DNA of 63,466 bases, counting the filler, from Welwitschia mirabilis (taxonomy: Eukaryota), in the NCBI GenBank assembly GCA_051453625.1. It is 4 parts of one record of this genome, joined end to end, with 100 filler letters (N's around TTAATTAATTAA, not from the genome) between each part and the next. Parts side by side here need not be neighbours in the genome. Positions count along the whole stretch, not along the records: positions 54,687 to 60,553 come from JBOZIK010000001.1; 3 more parts are not named here. One strand, given 5' to 3'. The notes beneath the pieces are model-generated. The model worked only from the letters and a program-made list of their open reading frames with translations, had not been told where the DNA came from and searched no databases. Shown piece after piece: positions 30,443 through 60,653 of this stretch; positions within the stretch are counted from its first letter, which is position 1, and each line of letters starts with the position of its first letter. Both the position numbers and the translations under genes were made by a program.

Positions 30443-30542
30443 NNNNNNNNNNNNNNNNNNNNNNNNNNNNNNNNNNNNNNNNNNNNTTAATTAATTAANN
30501 NNNNNNNNNNNNNNNNNNNNNNNNNNNNNNNNNNNNNNNNNN
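30443..30542. other. Assembly linker N44-TTAATTAATTAA-N44 (artificial contig join)
   Basis: Identical 100-bp design at 54587-54686 and 60554-60653; the 12-mer gives stops in all six frames. Confidence 0.95.
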
Positions 30543-50274: not shown

Positions 50275-53200
50275 ATGGAAGGGGTGCCATCTATTAGACC
50301 TTCACTTGTCAATGGTATAAACTATGCCTATTGGAAGAGGAGGATGCAGGTACACATATAGTCTTATGAGTTTTAGGTATGACAAAGCAATAAAAAAAGG
50401 ATATTTAAAACCTATAAAATCATAATAAAAGCTACATAAAACTCCATTACGCAAATTAAACCTAAAAGGGACTAGGAAGATAAAGAAAGATAGCCTTTAT
50501 GTATGACTTAAAAGTAAAAAATGCTCTCTCATTAGCCCTTATAATAAAATAGTTTAAGAAAATAGCTAGATGCAAAAATTCACAAGAAATATGAAACCTT
50601 CTATTTAGAACATACGAAGGAAATTTGATTATCATATAATCAAAACTTCTTATCCAGACTAACTAGTTTGAAAATCTAAAGATGAATAATGGAGAAAGAG
50701 TATATGAATACTTACAAGAGTCTTTAACATAGTGAATGTTATACATACCATTAATGAAAATATTTCAAAGGCCAAGGTAATCCAAAAGATTATTAGATCT
50801 TTAACTCTAGAATACAGGTCTAAAACAATAGCCATGGAATAATCAAGAGACTTTAGCTCAATGAAGATTGAAGAATTGTAAAGTGCTCTAATGGCTTACA
50901 AGATGAATCTTATTCAAGATAATGCTTTGGAAGAGAAACCTATCATTCTTAAAGCTAGTGAAAATATAAGGCAAGATTCTTAAAGGAAAATTAAAAAAGG
51001 ATCAAATGGAGATGACTCTAAGGACAATTTTGAAGAAGAAAGTACACTCATCATAAGGCAAGTCAAAAGAGTTCTCTCACAGAAGAATAATAGGAAGGAG
51101 GACTATCATAAAACATATGGATTTTAAGCTAGATGTAAGTCTAAAGGTAAAACTTCTAATACCTCTTTACTTTATTTTAAGTTAAATATTTCCAAATTAA
51201 AACATTGGGTTTGTAGAGGATGAGGACATATAGCCTTAAAGTTTTCTATCTCTATCAGATTATAGGAAAAAGTACAAAAGAAAACAATCCAATAAGAAGA
51301 AATCATTATTCAAATGATGGGATGATCATGAAGACACAACTGAAGTAGAAACATCTAATGACAAAAAAGCTCATCCATCCTATATGAACTTTATACATAT
51401 TCAGAATAAAAGTGATGAAAGAAAAGAAGAATACAAATTAGATAGTGAAGTTGAAACAAGTATGAAACTTTAAGGTAAGTATGATTTAATTTTTGAAATA
51501 TTTATTAAGTTGAAAAAGATGTGTGCTAAAATTAAAAATTTATTTCATTCTTATGAATTAGCATATTAACAAGAAAGAGGTTCTTACAATAATTTATCAT
51601 TTGAAAAATCAGCTCTTAAAGCTAAGAGTAATAAAATACTGTATAAAATAAAGCATGTTAGATATGAACTTGCTAATTTAAAAAGAATTAATGAGAATTT
51701 TATCCAAGAAAGGAGACACTAAACATCATGCTTCAATAATGTAGAAGTCCAAATGACAAAAGTGGTTTAGGCCACAATGAAGCCTTCACTAATATTTTAG
51801 CTTTCTTGTTCAATAAATAGAACTACAAGACAGGGTATGAGCATAGAGTTTATACAAATAATATTATATGTTATTATTTCTATAAATGAGGTCATTATTA
51901 GTTTAATTATCTAGTAAAATTCAACATCAAATATTACACTAACAGTGCCAAAAGGTCAAAAAGTATGGTACAATATCTTTTGCAAATTAAACTAAAGGAA
52001 ATTTATATTCCAAAATCAAGACAAACACTCTTAGCTTAGATTGCATTATGAGTAGTAAAGAGACATGCATGGTATGTTGATAGTGGATGTTCAAGGCACC
52101 TGAGTGGATACAAATCTAGCTTTATCACTTTGGTAGAGCAAGAAAAAGAAGTGGTTACTTTTGGCAATAGTATTAAGTCATCTATTAAAGATATAGAAAA
52201 CATTAGAGGAGGTAATCTATCTAAGGTAAAAGATGTTTTATTTAATAAAAGGGTTGTCACATAATCTTCTAAGTATTAGTAAATTATGCGATGCAAATTT
52301 TTTTGTGATCTTTATCAAAGATGGTTGTATTATTAAATAATACAACTCAAACAAATTTTCATTTTCTAAAATTAGAAAGTATAATGTATATGTCACTACT
52401 TTACAAGATATTCCTAATAAGAAAACCAAGTGTCTATTAAGTACTCTAGGTGAATCTAAGCTATTGCACAAGAAGCTTGGGAACATAAATGAAGACTAGC
52501 TAAAAATCTTAGCCTTAAAAGATATGGTAAGATAACTTCTTAAGTTGCAAAGCTTTAATGATCAGGTTTGTAAAGGATGCCAGAAAGGAAAGTAAACAAG
52601 GGTAATGTTTGGTAAGAAAAATACTATCACAACTAAACTTTCTTAGATTTTTTACATCTTGATATTATTGGTCCATCTTCCATAAAAAGTCTTAGTAAGA
52701 AAATATATTATCTAAATATTATTAATGATTAATTGCATTTTACATGGCTAGTCTTTCTTTCATACAAAGATGAGGTATTTAACATTTTCTTTAAGTTGTA
52801 CATTAGATTATAGAATCAAAAGGGATATAAGATCAAAATGATAAGAAGTGATAATAGAACAAAAATTTAAAAATGAAAAGTTTAGAAATGTTTATGAATA
52901 TCTAGGTATTCTTCACCAGTTCACTAAACTAAGCACTTCACAAAAAAAAAAATGAAATCATTTAAAGAAAGAACATGGTTTTAAATGAAATGACAAAAGT
53001 AATGATTCATGATGAACAAATTCCATATCATTTCTAGACAAAATCTATTAACACTACTCATTACATTTCTAATTTAGTTTTGTTAAGATGTTTTACTTTC
53101 AAAACCTCATATGAATCATTATTTGATGAAAAATCCTTAGTAATTTATTTTCATGTTTTGGCGCAAAGTGTTTTATTTTAAATGAAAGGCATCAGCTAAT

Positions 53201-54586
53201 AAAGTTTTATTCCAAAATTGATAAGGGAATTTTTCTAGGTTACTCCATGATTAATAAAGCCTACATAGTGTTCAATAATAAAACTATAATAGAGGAAACT
53301 ATAAATGTTAAAATAAATGATACTAACTCAATTTCTATTTATATGTAAGATGATTATATTTGCATAAAGTTTAAATAATCATCTAGTAATCCTCAAGCAC
53401 ATTCAAATAGTAAGGAGGAGAAATAATAAAAAATAGATAAGGAAACTTGTTCAAACATGATCAAACTAAAAAGAAGCCATTCCTTAAGCAACATCATGGA
53501 TAGGCTATATGATGGTATTCAAACTCAAAGCCATACTAAGGAATTCTATGGATTTGTGGCATATATCTTAAGGTAAAATCCAAAACTTGCAATGAAGTAG
53601 AAAGTGATGAATATTAAATGCTAGTAATGCAAAATGAACTTAATTAGTATGAAAGGTGTGATTCCTGATAACTCACTCCAAGACCATCTAACAAATCTAT
53701 TATTGGCATAGAATAGGTTTTTATAAATAAAATAGATAAAAATGATAATGCTATTAGAGACAAAGCAAGGTTAGTAGCTAAAGGATATAACCAATAAGAA
53801 AGAATAGAGTTTAAAGAAACCTTTGCACTAGTAGCTCATATGGAGCCCATAAGAATGCTTTTAGTCTTTGCATTGTTAAAGGATTTAGACTCTACCCAAT
53901 GAATGTTATAAGTGCCTTTCTAAATGGAGTACTTCAATAAAAAGTACATGTTGAGAAACCTAAATCATTTACGAACTTTTATAAAATAGACTATGTCTAC
54001 AAACTAAAAAAAGCTCTTTATGGTCTTAAGCAAGCTCCTAAAGCTTGGTATGATAAATCCTTAGGTTATCTATAGAAAAAATAGATAAGGGAACTTATTT
54101 AAACATGATCAAACTAAAAATAAGTCATTCCTCAAGTAATTTCATACATATCCTATATGGTGGTATTCAAACTCAAAGCCATAATAAGAAATTCAATGGA
54201 TTTGTGACATATATCTTAAGATAGAATCCAAAACTTTCAGTTAAGTAGAAAGTGATGAATATTGGATGCTAGCAATGAAAAATGAATTTAATCAGTTTAA
54301 AAGATGTAATCCCTAGGAACTTACTCAAAGATCATCTAACAAATCTATTATTGACATAGAATAGGTTTTTAGAAACAAAATAGATAAAAATGATAATGCT
54401 ATCAGAAACAAAAAAAGGTTAGTAGCTAAAGGGTATAATCACTAAGAAAGCATAGACTTTAAAGAAACCGTTGCACTAGTAGCTTGTATGGAGTCCATAA
54501 GAATGAATTTAGTCTTTGCATGTATTAAAAGATTCAGACGCTACCCAATGGATATTAAAAGTGCCTTTCTAAATGAAGTACTTTAA
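50275..54586 (+). pseudogene. Sirevirus gag-pol (gag, protease, integrase, partial RT), degenerate
   Basis: MEGVPSIRPSLVNGINYAYWKRRM, WYVDSGCSRHL (52070), LHKKLG, IRSDN, GIFLGYS, KARLVAKGY and YKLKKALYGLKQAPKAWY; many stops and frameshifts. Confidence 0.95.
53429..54586 (+). repeat. 648-bp-period tandem duplication within pol of D
   Basis: ATAGATAAGG at 53433 and 54081; colinear until the gap. Confidence 0.93.
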
Positions 54587-54686
54587 NNNNNNNNNNNNNN
54601 NNNNNNNNNNNNNNNNNNNNNNNNNNNNNNTTAATTAATTAANNNNNNNNNNNNNNNNNNNNNNNNNNNNNNNNNNNNNNNNNNNN
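54587..54686. other. Assembly linker gap
   Basis: N44-TTAATTAATTAA-N44. Confidence 0.95.
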
Positions 54687-55173
54687 GTGGTTTAGCCAGA
54701 GTGACTATATTGCTTGAATGGTTTAGCATGAAAAATGCAAAGCTTGTGAGTACTCCTCTAGCTACCCACTTTCACTTGTCTAGAAAGGACTGTCCCAGCT
54801 CAAAAGAAGATGTTGCTAAGGTGAGAAACATTCCAAATGCCTCAGCGGTAGGCTCACTCATGTTTGCTATGGTATGTACCCCTCCTGATATTGCTTATGC
54901 AGTTGGAGTAGTTAGTAGATACATGAGTAATTATGATTGGAATTATTGGCTTGTTATAAAATGGATTCTTAGATATTTGAAGGGTACACAATTGCATTGT
55001 CTGTGTTTTGGCAACGAAGATTTAAGCCTAGAAGGCTTTGTAGATGCTAATTTTGCAGCAGATTTGGACAATAGACGTTCTACCACAGGTTACGCTTTTA
55101 CTTTTGGTGGAGGTGCAGTCAGCTGGCTGTCACGTCTTCAACCAATAGTGACTTTGTCCACTATAGAGGTAGA
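54687..55173 (+). pseudogene. Ty1/copia RT C-terminus and RNase H start (Tnt1/Tork-like)
   Basis: ASAVGSLMFAMVCTPPDIAYAVGVVSRYMSN, KWILRYLKGT and GFVDANFAADLDNRRSTTGYAFTFGGGAVSWLSRLQ; flanked by gaps. Confidence 0.95.
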
Positions 55174-55299
55174 NNNNNNNNNNNNNNNNNNNNNNNNNNN
55201 NNNNNNNNNNNNNNNNNNNNNNNNNNNNNNNNNNNNNNNNNNNNNNNNNNNNNNNNNNNNNNNNNNNNNNNNNGACTATATAAAATATATAAAGTCACA

Positions 55300-56260
55300 C
55301 TATAAAGGAATAAATAATATCAAGAGATTTGGCTTCACTTCCAACACCCAAATGAGTTTAGTAGTCTCTAAAGGCATCACTCGACTGCTAATATGAGGCT
55401 CCATGGAATTCCGTAACATTGTTATGAATTGGGTGTTTTCTTGCGCCCACGTTAAAAGCTTTGTTGTCAAGGCCATCTGCATTGCTGTGGATCACAAAAA
55501 GTAGTTTTTCTCCCTTAAGTTTAAGGGAGGTTATATGAAATGCCTGAAATTGTATGGGAGTCATCAAGAATGTCTTGCTTCCACTAGAACTCATCTTTGC
55601 TACCCCACAAACGCGACAACAAACAACTTTGGAGAGAAGACATTGGAAGAAAACCCTAGATAAGATGTCTAGGGTTTGAAATTTCCAAACTTTTCACACC
55701 AAACCCTAACCCAGGGTTTTAACAACTTCACAAACATCCCAAAAATACCAAAACTATCCAAGAAGCCTCCTCTATTGGCCATAATAACTTGCTATAACAT
55801 CACAATTTTTCATCACATCACTAGGGTTTCAACATGAAACTACCAACATAGACCAAAATGCAAAGGACAACAAGCCTTAGCATCTTTTCAGTATCACCCA
55901 AGAGGAGATGCTTCCCAGAAGAGACAGAATCTAACAAAAAATGATGCCCTAGCACGAAGACATTGCCCTTAAGACCAAACCTTGCTTTGAGATCATGGAA
56001 AGGTCCGCAAACATTAGTGGTAGAGCAAAAAGAAGAAGAAAGAGAAGACAGTTTACGAACCCTTGAGTGTTATTGTTTTCCAACACTTAAATGAGGGGAC
56101 TGTTCCCTTTTTATATTAGATCATGAGGTCAACTTTACATGTGCTCTCAAAACCCTAACGTCTTGGTTTGGCGAGACTTTACTTTATAACTTTATAACAC
56201 AATGTTACTTTACAACATTGACCCCCTTCAATATATGATACATAATATGCATGTATAACA
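55300..56260 (-). mobile_element. Copia (Ale/Retrofit-like) 5' end: short LTR ~55996-56260, decayed PBS 55984-55995, UTR and frameshifted gag
   Basis: gag motifs ITSLKLKG and WAQENTQFITMLRNSMEPHI (ORFs 55388-55594, 55300-55482); reverse PBS GCTTTGAGATCA resembles GCTCTGATACCA; right end TATAACA. Confidence 0.7.
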
Positions 56261-56263
56261 CAT

Positions 56264-56678
56264 TGTTGATATGTGAAGCCAAATTTATTATTTTTGTAAC
56301 ATCCTTAATGTTATGTTTTTCGTTGCCCCACTTTAATATTGTAAAAGGAGGTTTTTATTTTAAATCCGTCTTTGGGGGCATTAGGTAGAGATTGGGCATG
56401 TGTTAAGAGAGGGATGATATCCTCTTTAGGGTTTTGGCTTAAAGCCTTAATTGGCTATAACCCTTGGCCTATTTAATAGTGGTGTGAGGTGTTCTTGCTT
56501 GAAGCCTGTTGTTAGCTTGAAGCCTATTCTTGGCTTGTAATCTTTAAAGAAGATAATTGAGCTCTGGATTGCTTTCTTGTGGTTTTTCCTCTCATTGGGT
56601 TTTCCACGTAAATCATTGTGTCTCTGTGTTCTCTTGCTGCTTTCTTTAATTCCTTTACTGTCGTGTATTTTCGTAACA
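56264..56678 (+). repeat. Copia LTR (Tnt1/Tork-like), ~415 bp
   Basis: TGTTGATATGTGAAGCCAAA...CGTAACA; internal GGGTTTTCCACGTAAATC; followed by PBS TGGTATTAGAGCC at 56681-56693. 5' edge less certain. Confidence 0.75.
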
Positions 56679-56680
56679 CT

Positions 56681-56899
56681 TGGTATTAGAGCCATGGTGG
56701 TTGGCTGGTTTCGGGTTCGAGTCTCCCTGGTGGGTTCCCAATTTATGTGAGCACATGGCATGTGGATTGAAGGGAAGATTGTTGGGTATGCACTCCCTAT
56801 GCCCAGCCTGACAAGGGGGTAAATATAAAACGCCCTAGTTTCCACCTAAGTCATGGCTTTTGGTGTGATGGTAAAAGGCCTAACGATTGGTATCAGAGC
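56681..56899 (+). mobile_element. TRIM-like cassette: PBS, short internal, PPT, 106-bp mini-LTR, second PBS
   Basis: PBS at 56681; GGTTCGAGTCT at 56714-56724; PPT GAAGGGAAGAT at 56769-56779; mini-LTR TGTTGGG...CCTAACG at 56780-56885; PBS TGGTATCAGAGC at 56888-56899. Confidence 0.8.
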
Positions 56900-57008
56900 A
56901 CTAGGTTTCGAGCTCACACGCTTTGGCAATAAGCTTTGTGTTCGTAAACCCTACGAGCGACAATGGAGCGTTTGGCATTTGTCTATATAGCCGTACAGTT
57001 AAACAACG

Positions 57009-60000
57009 ATGGAGTGTTTGCAGACTAGCAACTGACTAGTCGGAGCTGAGAACTAGGGTGTATAGAAGGTTTTGACGGAAGACATCATGGGCCAGAAGGA
57101 ATGTGACGCTATCCTAAGGACGAAAGTAGATGCAGAGGCAGTATCTAGATTGTCTTTGATGCTGAATGGCTGAAGAAGTACCCTAATGAAGAGTGGAAGA
57201 AACTTGACAGAAGGGCGTTTTCATTGATTTGACTGTGCTTTGGCAACATGATTCTTTAATCCCATAACAAGATTTCTACAACAGCTAAACTGTGGTAGAT
57301 TTTGATGTAGAAGTATGATCAGCCTACTAGCATGAACTAGTTTTAGACTGTCAACAAGGCCTTACAATTGAAGATGAAAGAAGGTGCATCGCTGCAAGCA
57401 CACTTGGACGAGATGAAGTCGTTGTTCACACAGTTGGACGACCTTAGGGTAACGTTTGAAGAAAACCTAAGGGTAATCGCAATTCTCAGTTCCTTGCCTA
57501 ATTCCTACGAGACTATTCGCACTACCCTGATAACAACCTTAAATCTTATGCCACCCTTAAATACTGTTATTTTAAAGCTTTTGGATGCCTATAAGACTAG
57601 GGCTATTGAGTTTGTTGGAGAACCTCTTGCTATTCGTGGAGGACGTTCTCAGACCAGATTGCTTGCTTTCTATCCTATGAAGAAGGCGTCTTCGTTAGAT
57701 TGTTCTATAAAGGCCTATCAGAGAGAAGATGATCTACAAAACACTCAACAGATCAAGAGGTGCAACGTTAGACCGGTCAGCTACTTGACGTGAAAAGCAT
57801 GCGTCCTGCCATTCGTAAGGATTCATATGCTTCAATATGCTTATAGGGCATAGGTTTAGTAATTGTTTTCGATTCGTCAGCTAGTCTTCAGCATATGTAG
57901 TCGCTACCCCCCGACATACCCGCAGTGGGATCCTTATTTGATGAGAAGCGACGAGGGTCAAGGTATTGGTAAGTCCAGGGTAAGTGAGAGACCGTAAAGG
58001 GCTGGAATCATGTTCTTCAATACATAGACTCGTAGGAAGGTCAGTGAGGAAGGGTTCGTTATTAGCTTCATCTGACCAATACATCCTTCGATGCATCAAC
58101 TTCGTACTGGGCACGATTTAACAAAATGAGAATGCATGAGTGAGCTTCAACATGGTACTCATTATTGGGTCACTAGGAGGACGTTGACAGAGCAAGAGCA
58201 GAGGTAGATCTGTCAACAGAAGCATTGAATGTTGGCACTGCATGAAGACAGACCATTTACGAAAGGACTGCTATAGCCTAAAAAATAAGCGTAGATAGAA
58301 GGAAGGAAGTAACCAGCAGAACCAGGAAGGAGGATAAGGGTTGAATGCAGAAGGGGATGTTGATGTTGGGTTGATTATGGATACATAAGAGGTAAACATT
58401 TCCCAATAGTCTTGTCCTAACATTTGGATTCTGGATTCAGGTGCTTCTTTCCGTGTCTACCCAGATGTTCCCATGTTTTCTTCATATAACAAAGTTTTAG
58501 AGAAGTATGTGTATCTAGGGGATGATCGAGCTATGAGATCAAAGGAATTGGGTTTGTAATGTTGCAACGAACTAATGGTAGAAAACTATTTCTTTAGGAT
58601 GTTAGACATGTGCCTCAACTTATGAAAAATTTAATCTCAGCAGTTAATTAGATGCTGCTATTGGTTTAGTCTTCTTTGGCGCAGGTGGGTGGAAGGTAAC
58701 GAAAGGCGCTATGGTGCTAGCACAAGGACAGAAAGAAGGAACCTTGTACACTCTCCATGTTGATGTGTTGAAGCACAATGTTGTTGTTGCTGCTGATAAG
58801 AATGTATCTCTTTGGCATAAGAGACTTGGACATCCCAGTGAAATAGGCAGATTTTGATGCAGAAGTATGATGCAGAAGTATGATCAGCCTACTAGTATGA
58901 TCAGCCTACTAGTATGCATCATTGCAAGCACACGTGGACGAGATGGACGGCCTGTCCACACAGTTGGACGACCTGAGGGTGATGTTTGAAGAAGACCTAA
59001 AGGTAATCATGGTTCTCAGTTCCTTGCCTGATTCTTGGGAGACTATTCATACTACCTTGATGACTGCCTCATATACTATGTCGTGATTGAAATTGTAATT
59101 TCAAAGCTTCCAGATGCATACAAGACTAGGGTTGTTGAGAAGCCCTCGCTTTTCGTAAAGGACATTCTCAAACCAGAGGAGGAGGATGTTGGCAAAGCAA
59201 GAGCAGAGGAAAATCCGTCAACAGAAGCATTAAATGTTGGCACTGCAAGAAGAAAGGTCATTTACGGAAGGACTGGTACAGCCTGAAAAACAAGCGTATA
59301 CAGAAAGGAGGAGGTAACCAGCAAAACCAGGAAGAAGGACAAGGGTTGAATGCAGAAGGAGATGTTGACATTCTGTTGATTACAGATAGATGCACAAGAG
59401 ATAAACATTTCCCAATACTCTTGTCCTGATGTTTGGNNNNNNNNNNTTGGATTTTGGATTTTGGATTTTAGATTTTGGTGCTTCTTTTCATGCCTGCCCA
59501 AATGTTTCGATGCTTTTTTCCTATAACAAAGTTTCAGAGAAGAATGTATATCTCAGAGATGATCGACGCTATGAGATCAAAGGAATTGGATCTATAGTGC
59601 TACAAGGAAGTGATGGCAGAAAACTATTCCTTCAGGATGTTAGACATGTGCCTCAACTTACTAAAAACTTAATCTCAATAGGTCAATTAGATGTTGCTGG
59701 TTGTTCAGTCTTCTTTGGTGCAGGCGGCTGGGAGGTAACAAAAGGTGCCTTGTTGCTGGCACGAGGACAGAAAGAAGGGACCTTGTACACTTTGCATGTT
59801 GATTTGGTAAAGCACAGTGTTGTTGTTGCTGGTGATGAGGATGTATCTCTTTGGCAAAAGAGACTTGGACATCTTAGTGAAACTGGCATAAAGGCTTTTA
59901 GTTCTAAAAACGTGCTTCCAAAGTTTGATTCTGTTTTTTAGATTTCTGTAAGGATTGTGCTATTGCAAAAGCAAAACGTATAAACTTTAAGAAATGCCTT

Positions 60001-60553
60001 TCTGAAAAATAAACTGCTGGAAAGCTAGATTTGGCTTATTCCAATGTTGTTGGGCCTATGACAGTAACATCTTTTGGTGGACCGTCATATTTTGTTACTT
60101 TTATTGATGACTTCAGTTGAAAAACTTGGTTGTTTCCAATTTCATCGAAAGATAGTCTTTGATATTTTCAAACAATTTAAAGCTAGAGTGGAAAATGAAT
60201 CAAATTGTAAAACTAAACGCTTAGTGATAGATAATGGAGGTGAATACACCTCTCATGACTTTGAGATGTTTTACAAAGAATAATGGAGGGGCTGAAAGCT
60301 ATAATAGAACTGTTTTAAAAAGTTTGCGTTCATTGTTGCAACAATCTGGAGTTCCATAACATCTTTGGGTTGAAGCAGCTAATACAGCTGCATATCTTAT
60401 AAACAGGTCACTGCATTCAACACTTCAAGGAGGTATACCAGAGTCTGTTTGGAGTGGGAGGAAGCCATCTTTCTCTCATTTGAAGGTGTTTGTCTGTGAA
60501 GCATACGTGCATTAGCAGAACACAAGAAAGCTGAATGGTCATGCACGCAGGTG
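57009..60553 (+). pseudogene. Ty1/copia gag-protease-integrase (Tnt1/Tork-like), with internal duplication and insertion
   Basis: LKMKEGASLQAHLDEM, AILSSLPNSY, CWHCMKTDHLRKDC, WILDSGAS (58425), LQDVRHVPQLTKNLISIGQLD, LWQKRLGHLS, FIDDFS, DNGGEY and WVEAANTAAYLINRS. Confidence 0.95.
57659..58174. other. 516-bp non-TE insert within copia gag
   Basis: Absent from the duplicate copy, where CCAGA-GGAGGAGGATGTT is contiguous near 59173-59190; CpG-rich relative to the window; no TSD or terminal repeats. Confidence 0.85.
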
Positions 60554-60653
60554 NNNNNNNNNNNNNNNNNNNNNNNNNNNNNNNNNNNNNNNNNNNNTTA
60601 ATTAATTAANNNNNNNNNNNNNNNNNNNNNNNNNNNNNNNNNNNNNNNNNNNN
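60554..60653. other. Assembly linker gap
   Basis: N44-TTAATTAATTAA-N44. Confidence 0.95.

Follow-up and report, generated by a model that had tools for sequence, protein, structure and literature searches.

An unrelated TRIM unit between the 5' LTR and leader of a Ty1/copia element in Welwitschia mirabilis: a possible record of joint reverse transcription

TRIMs occur across plant genomes, and the movers of most families are unidentified; Gao et al. (2016, Genome Biol 17:7) count 278 of 289 TRIM subfamilies as having no coding relative, in agreement with the initial annotation of the DNA described here, which had called TRIM helpers mostly unidentified. That paper defines TRIMs by two short terminal direct repeats, a short internal domain and an element size of less than 1-1.5 kb, and treats three-LTR TRIM arrays with TSDs (L3I2 and larger) as common. 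TRIM chimeras whose LTRs were donated by other TRIM families appear in a sugar beet study (PMC13570524). For plant copia elements, template-switch complexes with an internal LTR (LTR-ID-LTR-ID-LTR) have been described, and a switch of template from one co-packaged RNA to a different one has been invoked for the chimeric families BARE2 and Veju_L (Sabot & Schulman 2007, BMC Genomics 8:247). Searches for helpers usually rely on common LTRs, of which the TRIM and the copia element considered below have none. LTR swapping between autonomous and non-autonomous elements of soybean is reportedly the subject of work by Du et al. in 2010.

The composite studied here comes from the Welwitschia mirabilis assembly GCA_051453625.1 and lies in the JBOZIK010000001.1 part (54,687-60,553) of the window, that is, of the whole 63,466-base stretch of DNA analysed. 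On the + strand, 5' to 3', it consists of a copia LTR, a first PBS, an 87-nt stretch with a terminal PPT, a mini-LTR, a second PBS, a leader and a degenerate copia gag-PR-INT region, and so has an internal LTR between two internal domains (copia LTR - TRIM internal - TRIM LTR - copia internal). This arrangement is confirmed in the window, and all parts claimed by the initial annotation are found within at most a few bases of where it had put them. Read and contig evidence is drawn from public reads of the same organism label (raw-read runs X15 and X16; contigs of X1), with further contigs from X7, a second organism label in which both families are present.

The 5' LTR of the copia element (TGTTG...TAACA) occupies 415 bp at 56264..56678, as judged from its sequence, read edges and depth. 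At the left edge, 490 reads of X15 and 477 of X16 depart from the window just before 56264, and the consensus of these diverging reads is purine-rich, ending ...AAGTGGGAGAA, as is expected where a PPT meets a 3' LTR; the right edge is marked by read joints that skip 207 bases and begin at 56679. Raw-read depth is 460-736 at 56278-56547 and 279-451 at 56548-56655, with 2-3 in the far upstream flank. Only the 5' LTR lies within the window, where self-BLAST detects no second copy; the window contains neither a 3' LTR nor a TSD of the element, and the contig chain ends in linkers.

PBS 1 (56681..56692, +), TGGTATTAGAGC, has one mismatch to the usual initiator-Met-type PBS, a T at 56687, while PBS 2 (56888..56899, +), TGGTATCAGAGC, is exact and begins 2 nt past the mini-LTR. 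We take this motif to be the one that pairs with initiator tRNA-Met. With at most one mismatch allowed, the 12-mer TGGTATCAGAGC has two matches in the 63,466-base window, their starts 207 bases apart; 0.10 matches are expected by chance, and two or more occurred in 1 of 100 shuffles. The repeat around the PBS reaches 19 nt, of which 16 are alike. The T variant of PBS 1 recurs in copia junctions that lack the TRIM (joint 56687->56895; 12 X15 reads, 3 X1 contigs), and the PBS motif itself is printed in Gao et al. 2016.

The block between the two PBS copies is exactly one 207-bp TRIM period, PBS to PBS, in keeping with the earlier proposal of a TRIM unit swapped in at the shared PBS. Its internal domain (56693..56764, +) is the sequence entered by reads leaving PBS 2 and by joints that go back 207 bases. 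It is followed by a PPT (56765..56779, +; 12 of 15 purines) that directly abuts the mini-LTR start, and the 87 nt of 56693-56779 are without a retrotransposon protein. The TRIM LTR or mini-LTR (TGTTGGG...CCTAACG; 56780..56885, +; 106 bp) is delimited by read depth and 3'-end departures, its 5' edge having as its one mark the TG start right after the 15-nt tract at 56765-56779. It carries a TATA-like TAAATATAAAA at about 56820-56830 and is the deepest part of the stretch, with 1345 and 1221 reads at 56818-56871. At its 3' edge, 312 and 300 reads continue past 56884 into unlike AT-rich flanks (agreement 0.37-0.38). At 56885 the window has G and most reads have A (821 of 846 in X15, 744 of 769 in X16), which implies that members of the mini-LTR family end in CA.

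At PBS 2, 424 and 397 reads go on into TRIM internal sequence (agreement 0.74), and joints going back 207 bases, from mini-LTR through PBS to TRIM internal domain, occur in 46 and 40 reads. The reads close the cycle from LTR to PBS to internal domain, the window supplies the path from internal domain to PPT to LTR, and a unit of about 313 bp with 106-bp LTRs is implied, with the reservation that no one contiguous copy with both LTRs was seen and that tandem arrays would give the same joints. As in TRIMs, a PBS stands next to the 5' repeat and a PPT before the 3' repeat. The departures into unrelated flanks, and the reads passing from mini-LTR through PBS into the internal domain, point to the 106-bp repeat being an LTR that belongs to a free-standing, abundant TRIM-type element and not ordinary copia 5' UTR, the alternative that the initial annotation had set against its own reading.

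There is no significant likeness between mini-LTR and copia LTR, the best local match being 16 nt and equalled in 13 of 500 shuffles; what the two do share is limited to the tips (TGTTG..., ...TAACA) and the PBS, as use of one integrase and one primer would require. The TRIM internal domain and the copia leader beyond the PBS are likewise not significantly alike (equalled by 801 of 1000 shuffles locally and by 24 of 1000 in a constrained alignment). Folding of the RNA at 56679-56900 gave a z-score of 0.07 and no structure signal. A 28-letter PBS-plus-internal pattern had 0 matches among contigs from metagenomes, genomes and viruses. For a 20-mer taken from the mini-LTR there were 0 viral matches and 10 metagenome loci, which are put down to chance because none matches beyond 20-22 nt. 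A SINE or tRNA-derived unit, considered on account of a GGTTCGAG-like motif, was rejected, as ARAGORN reported 0 genes in 55000-58000 and in the whole window; Rfam searches of the unit at E up to 10 returned chance-level matches, with no tRNA, 5S or hammerhead.

The copia leader (5' UTR; 56900..57087, +) is a low-copy variant that reads skipping 207 bases join directly to the copia LTR and PBS; the shorter side of such reads at this LTR-PBS/leader joint reaches 66-74 letters. Read depth along the leader is 91-99 at 56926-56979 and 25-28 at 56980-57087, and 13-28 over 56980-57141. Copia gag does follow the second PBS, as the initial annotation stated, but starts about 190 nt downstream of it and not at the ~110 given there: extending the gag profile to its first position puts the start near 57098, and 57088 has an ATG. 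The degenerate gag and pol start (57088..58860, +), recognized from translations and Pfam, has many stops and frameshifts. It includes Retrotran_gag_2 at 57365-57600 and gag_pre-integrs at 58744-58842. Downstream of the leader, Pfam matches Retrotran_gag_2 (E 3.4e-14), zf-CCHC (weak), Pol_BBD (E 6e-24), gag_pre-integrs, rve (weak) and SH3_retrovirus, in this sequence and thus in the order gag-PR-INT. These domains mark the host as a Ty1/copia element, a type in which integrase precedes reverse transcriptase; the RT lies beyond the contig end. A further, incomplete copy of gag-PR-INT, with 80-86% identity to the first, follows at 58868..60553 (+) and ends at the stitched contig boundary; at the tandem gag joint, in the same contig, stretches of 13 and 17 nt are doubled, and this odd duplication lowers trust in the assembly. 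The window as a whole is a chain of small contigs linked by N runs and TTAATTAATTAA linkers. An adjacent contig holds another 300-nt repeat at 86%.

Copia copies with LTR, PBS and leader only, which the initial annotation had named as a point of comparison, are present at several loci, in 32 reads of X15 (20+12), 21 of X16 (20+1), 8 contigs of X1 and 3 of X7. Given such TRIM-less copies, the composite is very probably not the normal leader of the copia family. Window letters at 56699, 56734 and 56755 are carried by at most 16 of 179, 8 of 160 and 14 of 248 X15 reads, and by at most 24 of 181, 5 of 147 and 12 of 238 X16 reads. A likeness of 99% or more to the window is reached by just 103 of 6376 aligned reads in one run and 76 of 6090 in the other. 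The window copy thus differs from most reads of its family, so that its junction words should be locus-specific and a k-mer assembler would hardly have invented them. When LTR, unit, mini-LTR, leader and flank were each compared with the window by self-BLAST, none had a further copy there, and no second copy of the composite was found. The composite is perhaps rare, possibly unique, and this copy of it is old and dead.

What kind of event could have placed one TRIM period in a copia leader? The unit is without a 5' mini-LTR and without a TSD around it, and for that reason is not a plain insertion; a block of one period between two PBS copies is likewise unlike an ordinary insertion, which would leave two mini-LTRs and a TSD. 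The composite most likely records joint reverse transcription and hints at the TRIM's helper. That it is a real heterologous "complex" LTR retrotransposon, a copia copy whose 5' LTR and leader are separated by one period of a high-copy TRIM, unrelated to it but using the same initiator-Met-type PBS, is a proposition for which we consider the balance about even. The anatomy suggests template switching between co-packaged RNAs as its origin, and the exact PBS-to-PBS extent of the block fits a PBS-guided extra minus-strand round in which a co-packaged TRIM RNA served as template and a heterologous complex with three LTRs resulted.

On this proposal of joint reverse transcription, TRIM and copia RNA would be together in one virus-like particle, and minus-strand DNA would copy the copia RNA up to the copia PBS. 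Its PBS-complementary 3' end would then anneal to the PBS of the TRIM RNA and not to plus-strand strong-stop DNA. TRIM U5-R would be copied and the usual R-to-R jump made, followed by copying through U3, PPT and internal domain until the TRIM PBS is reached, and only afterwards would pairing with copia plus-strand strong-stop DNA take place. The expected product would be copia LTR - PBS - TRIM internal - PPT - TRIM LTR - PBS - copia leader.

An unlikely alternative is DNA-level rearrangement after integration, either by TRIM insertion at the LTR/PBS border and subsequent deletion of the 5' mini-LTR between short direct repeats, or by repair of a break in the copia PBS that copied from a TRIM elsewhere via the 13-19-nt PBS homology. 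Plant LTR elements commonly undergo illegitimate recombination and reshuffling, according to PMC13570524, and Sabot & Schulman (2007, BMC Genomics 8:247) counted 20 recombinant and 2 template-switch complexes. TRIM and copia copies do adjoin one another, as in one X7 contig where 4 bases separate a mini-LTR's own tip from the start of a copia LTR, and an old copy has had time for secondary events. Two coincidences would nevertheless be needed: the TRIM would have had to insert precisely at the PBS border, and a deletion to take out just the 5' mini-LTR. Speaking against them, the register from PBS to PBS is perfect, and neither a TSD nor a remnant is left. An exact homology of 13 nt is also short for homologous repair.

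It is improbable, too, that the composite is an assembly chimera in which copia and TRIM contigs were merged at their common LTR-tip/PBS stretch. The assembly is fragmentary and stitched, its small contigs being chained by N runs and linkers, and there are the odd tandem gag copy (80-86%) in the same contig and the 300-nt repeat (86%) in a neighbouring one to consider; the best single run has only 0.61 of the stretch's sampled words, and among the contigs listed none spans the stretch. Among the reads and contigs listed, which appear there by their differences from the stretch, none is seen to bridge copia LTR, PBS 1 and TRIM internal domain, or mini-LTR, PBS 2 and copia leader. The exact common run, however, is at most 13 nt and falls to 7+5 nt once the T of the window is taken into account, lengths probably below the usual words or overlaps of assemblers. 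Neither junction contains Ns, and as both are in perfect register two separate mis-joins would be required. Depth is continuous over both junctions in four runs, which alone is not decisive. It is very improbable that a copia sub-family amplifies with the TRIM unit inside it and stably inherits the composite as its usual leader, as the initial annotation had alternatively supposed: all cis signals (outer LTR, adjoining PBS, far-end PPT) would presumably stay intact, and Gao et al. 2016 give the TRIM-related rice copia OsajLTRA10 a duplicated 25-bp PBS-bearing stretch, but TRIM-less junctions (32 and 21 reads, 11 contigs) are at least as numerous as the reads over the leader that they join (depth 13-28 at 56980-57141), and few reads (at most 5-24 of 147-248) have the window letters at the three positions named above.

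Joint reverse transcription, if it did produce the composite, would mean that the copia family packages the TRIM and is hence a candidate helper. More tentatively, the composite may be a fossil of TRIM and copia RNA reverse-transcribed in one particle via a PBS-guided extra cycle, with the copia family as the TRIM's natural helper and with a general route for linking elements with unrelated LTRs; a single event of co-reverse transcription would not prove regular helping. A junction for which there is scarcely any origin other than joint reverse transcription would be a different kind of evidence on helpers and parasites, and would offer a concrete, testable pair. If the proposal is true, non-autonomous elements have a way to join, and could travel with, autonomous ones whose LTRs are unrelated to their own; should the composite turn out to come from faulty assembly or from a single DNA rearrangement, it would be ordinary transposon debris. 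A full-text literature search returned no case of a TRIM unit inside the leader of an autonomous element, and comparable ones may be contained in the supplements of Gao et al. 2016 (Table S16) and of the sugar beet paper.

Among described systems, the complexes of Sabot & Schulman (2007) are alike in having an internal LTR between two internal domains, in the proposed single cycle of reverse transcription on two co-packaged RNAs and in the involvement of copia. They differ in that the partners here are unrelated, an autonomous-type copia with a 415-bp LTR and a TRIM of roughly 313 bp, and in that the joints are at the shared PBS and not in R; that class is defined by a flanking TSD and highly similar outermost LTRs, and the 3' end of the present composite lies outside the window. 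With the tandem TRIMs and sugar beet chimeras, the composite has in common an extra "internal domain + LTR" period in register and modules reshuffled among families with a common PBS type, but there TRIM is joined to TRIM and here a TRIM period stands in a coding copia leader. The rice pair OsajLTRA10/OsajRetroS10 of Gao et al. 2016 also links a copia element and a TRIM via a duplicated PBS-containing stretch (…TGGTATCAGAGCC). The rice LTRs (97%) and internal ends are common to both, the TRIM being read as a deletion derivative, whereas in the present composite the TRIM is a guest whose LTR is unrelated to that of the copia. BARE2, Veju_L and the soybean elements resemble the present case as helper-parasite recombination during reverse transcription, and differ in that parts were swapped there and a whole extra unit is added here. 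Template-switch complexes as such are already known; with its pairing of TRIM and copia, the composite provides a heterologous example alongside the tandem and complex LTR structures catalogued from long-read assemblies.

The composite lies on the plus strand and opens with a copia LTR-like block of 415 bp (56264-56678), delimited in the sequence by TGTTG...TAACA. Two bases past this block is the first primer-binding site (PBS 1, TGGTATTAGAGC, 56681-56692), followed by a unique 72-nt TRIM internal stretch, a 15-nt purine-rich tract (56765-56779, purines at 12 of 15 positions), a 106-bp mini-LTR block (56780-56885, TGTTGGG...CCTAACG) and, again two bases beyond, PBS 2 (TGGTATCAGAGC, 56888-56899); a leader and a decayed coding region lie 3' of PBS 2. 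The layout described in the initial annotation (LTR, PBS, PPT, mini-LTR and a second PBS 207 bases on) is present in the sequence. The start of gag, which had been placed about 110 nt past PBS 2, lies instead at about 190 nt, with an ATG at 57088 and a gag profile that extrapolates to ~57098. PBS 1 and PBS 2 are the only matches to the PBS-type 12-mer, at no more than one mismatch, in the 63,466-base window, where 0.10 are expected by chance and two or more occurred in 1 of 100 shuffles. They begin 207 bases from each other, and the repeat reaches 19 nt (16/19 alike). Likeness of the mini-LTR to the copia LTR is limited to the tips, the best local match being 16 nt, with equal scores in 13 of 500 shuffles. 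There is no second copy of either LTR within the window, and the copia 3' LTR and TSD thus lie beyond it.

Part of the stretch is contained in 14 public runs from 5 studies, under organism labels A, B and C (C at small share), and four runs were aligned to 55900-57500 with a likeness of at least 85%: X1 (organism A, the best match to the stretch) and X7 (organism B) as Logan contigs, and two more whole-genome runs of organism A, X15 and X16, as about 1% each of their raw reads. Raw-read depths sum both directions, and paired figures are X15/X16. Depth is ~2-3 in the far flank (55900-56007), 460-736 and 279-451 in the first and later parts of the copia LTR (56278-56547 and 56548-56655), 214/202 in the TRIM internal stretch (56710-56763), 1345/1221 in the mini-LTR (56818-56871), 91/99 and 13-28 in the near and far leader (56926-56979 and 56980-57141), and ~130-240 in gag, from 57142. 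From these depths, both LTRs are high-copy repeats, the mini-LTR being the commoner, and the window's leader is a low-copy variant.

Several features of the copia copy itself emerged from the same reads. The leader (56926-57141; depth 13-99) is far rarer than the LTR (~280-740) or gag (~130-240), and two runs each have a contig that skips 56937-57152; being both rare and skipped, the leader is the copia family's most variable module. Within the copia LTR, an 18-nt tandem doubling (56489-56532, 83% alike), at which 234/269 reads diverge to other sequence, is an indel variant that only a minority of copia copies carry. The flank just 5' of the LTR (56008-56263), where depth climbs from ~10 to ~40 against 2-3 farther upstream, is a low-copy repeat, and the copia element may sit within another repeat. 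Where family reads depart from the window copy, they do so by far most often through C>T and G>A (in X15, for instance, at 136 and 176 places, other types 8-66), as expected from methylated-cytosine decay in old transposon copies.

Read edges and joints reveal both a free TRIM-type element and a TRIM-less copia as the normal form. Directly 5' of 56264, 490/477 reads diverge, and their consensus there is rich in purines, as at the border between a PPT and a 3' LTR. Past 56884, 312/300 reads leave the stretch for unlike AT-rich sequence (agreement 0.37-0.38), and this is a true element terminus; since position 56885 is A in 821 of 846 (X15) and 744 of 769 (X16) reads, family members terminate in CA. 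Among reads crossing PBS 2, 424/397 continue into sequence that in the window lies 3' of PBS 1 (agreement 0.74), and the joint going back 207 bases, from mini-LTR and PBS to TRIM internal stretch, was found in 35+11 reads of X15, 34+6 of X16 and one contig of X1. As had been anticipated, then, the mini-LTR occurs free: it is the LTR of an abundant TRIM-type element with an implied length of ~313 bp (106 + 101 + 106), or of arrays thereof, relatives of which were absent from metagenome, prokaryote-genome and viral collections. The reciprocal joint, skipping 207 bases to give copia LTR-PBS-leader without the unit, is present in 20+12 reads of X15, 20+1 of X16, eight contigs of X1 and three of X7 (shorter side up to 66-74 letters), so the predicted TRIM-less copies also exist, and this is normally the form the family takes.

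These TRIM-less junction reads at least equal the depth of the leader behind the junction. The window's TRIM part is unlike nearly all reads at 56699, 56734 and 56755, where its letters are carried by at most 16/179, 8/160 and 14/248 reads in X15 and 24/181, 5/147 and 12/238 in X16. For both reasons the composite is not the standard form of the copia family; if the far flank is unique, with a single-copy depth of ~2-3, the reads with window letters represent a handful of copies at most. No contig spans the whole stretch among those listed for X1 and X7, and the composite junctions are known from the assembled window; the read alignment, which listed differences rather than agreements, has no read or contig bridging either of them.

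Downstream, Pfam matches to Retrotran_gag_2 (E 3.4e-14), gag_pre-integrs, Pol_BBD (E 6e-24), SH3_retrovirus and, weakly, rve stand in copia order, in coding pieces whose translation has numerous stops and frameshifts. The internal region is partly doubled (57303-58860 vs 58868-60553): a further gag-PR-INT copy, with 80-86% likeness to the first and without ~525 bp of gag, begins where the first stops, in the integrase N-terminus, and at the joint (~58852-58920) stretches of 13 and 17 nt are duplicated. Either the assembly produced this doubling as an artefact, or a second template switch occurred, between co-packaged RNAs that were unlike. A copia pol piece in a neighbouring contig (SH3_retrovirus at 53130-53348, E 2.3e-11) has a similar, diverged tandem doubling (53428-53727 vs 54076-54375 and 53876-53937 vs 54525-54586; 86-87% identity, spacing 648-649).

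A TRIM inserted in the usual way would be expected to have a mini-LTR at each end and a TSD; the window instead has exactly one period (internal domain, PPT, LTR and PBS), placed in perfect register between two copies of the PBS. The simplest origin, to which we give about an even chance given the standard LTR-element replication scheme reviewed by Sabot & Schulman 2007 (PMC1950507), is a reverse-transcription error in a particle holding both TRIM and copia RNAs. Minus-strand DNA arriving at the copia PBS would pair, through its PBS-complementary end, with the PBS of the TRIM RNA; TRIM U5-R would be copied and, after the R-to-R jump, U3, PPT and internal domain all the way to the TRIM PBS, whereupon the minus strand would pair with copia plus-strand strong-stop DNA. 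The predicted product, copia LTR-PBS-TRIM internal-PPT-TRIM LTR-PBS-leader, would match the window precisely. The sole requirement would be a shared PBS, which the two families do have, and a single integrase could act on LTR tips as similar as these (TGTTG, TAACA). It is unlikely that the TRIM inserted at the LTR/PBS border and then underwent an exact deletion by microhomology, or that a break was repaired from a template, since these routes require coincidences.

Somewhat less likely still is an assembly chimera of copia and TRIM. The assembly is of poor quality: the window consists of small contigs chained by N runs and TTAATTAATTAA linkers (44 N + TTAATTAATTAA + 44 N, besides 100-N and 10-N gaps; 15 runs and 835 N in total, for example 30443-30542, 54587-54686 and 60554-60653); the order and adjacency of its pieces are uninformative, and the contig that holds the composite (55274-59436) also holds the odd joint with the doubled 13- and 17-nt stretches. 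Against a chimera, the exact shared run is at most 13 nt, neither junction contains Ns, and it would take two mis-joins, both in register. A stably amplified composite sub-family, the other reading in the initial annotation, is very improbable given TRIM-less junction reads at or above leader depth and the few window-letter reads. A template-switch origin is plausible from the sequence, as is a role of this copia family as TRIM helper; the composite would be a testable lead on the long-open TRIM-helper question, one that rests on a single dead copy in a stitched assembly.

A full-text literature search of article bodies returned no account of a coding element whose leader contains a TRIM period and whose LTRs are unrelated to it. 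Plant copia complexes that comprise three LTRs plus two internal domains have been ascribed to template switching, with a TSD around the entire complex and matching outer LTRs as diagnostics (PMC1950507); the composite resembles these in its internal-LTR layout, and the window ends short of the copia 3' LTR. According to Gao et al. 2016 (PMC4717578), TRIMs commonly form arrays of three LTRs that have TSDs, and a sugar beet study describes chimeric TRIMs whose LTRs came from other TRIM families, for which template switching was likewise proposed (PMC13570524). The rice copia element OsajLTRA10 has a duplicated PBS-bearing 25-mer adjoining TRIM-like parts but, in the same article by Gao et al. 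(PMC4717578), has LTRs in common with its TRIM, whereas the Welwitschia copia and TRIM LTRs are unrelated.
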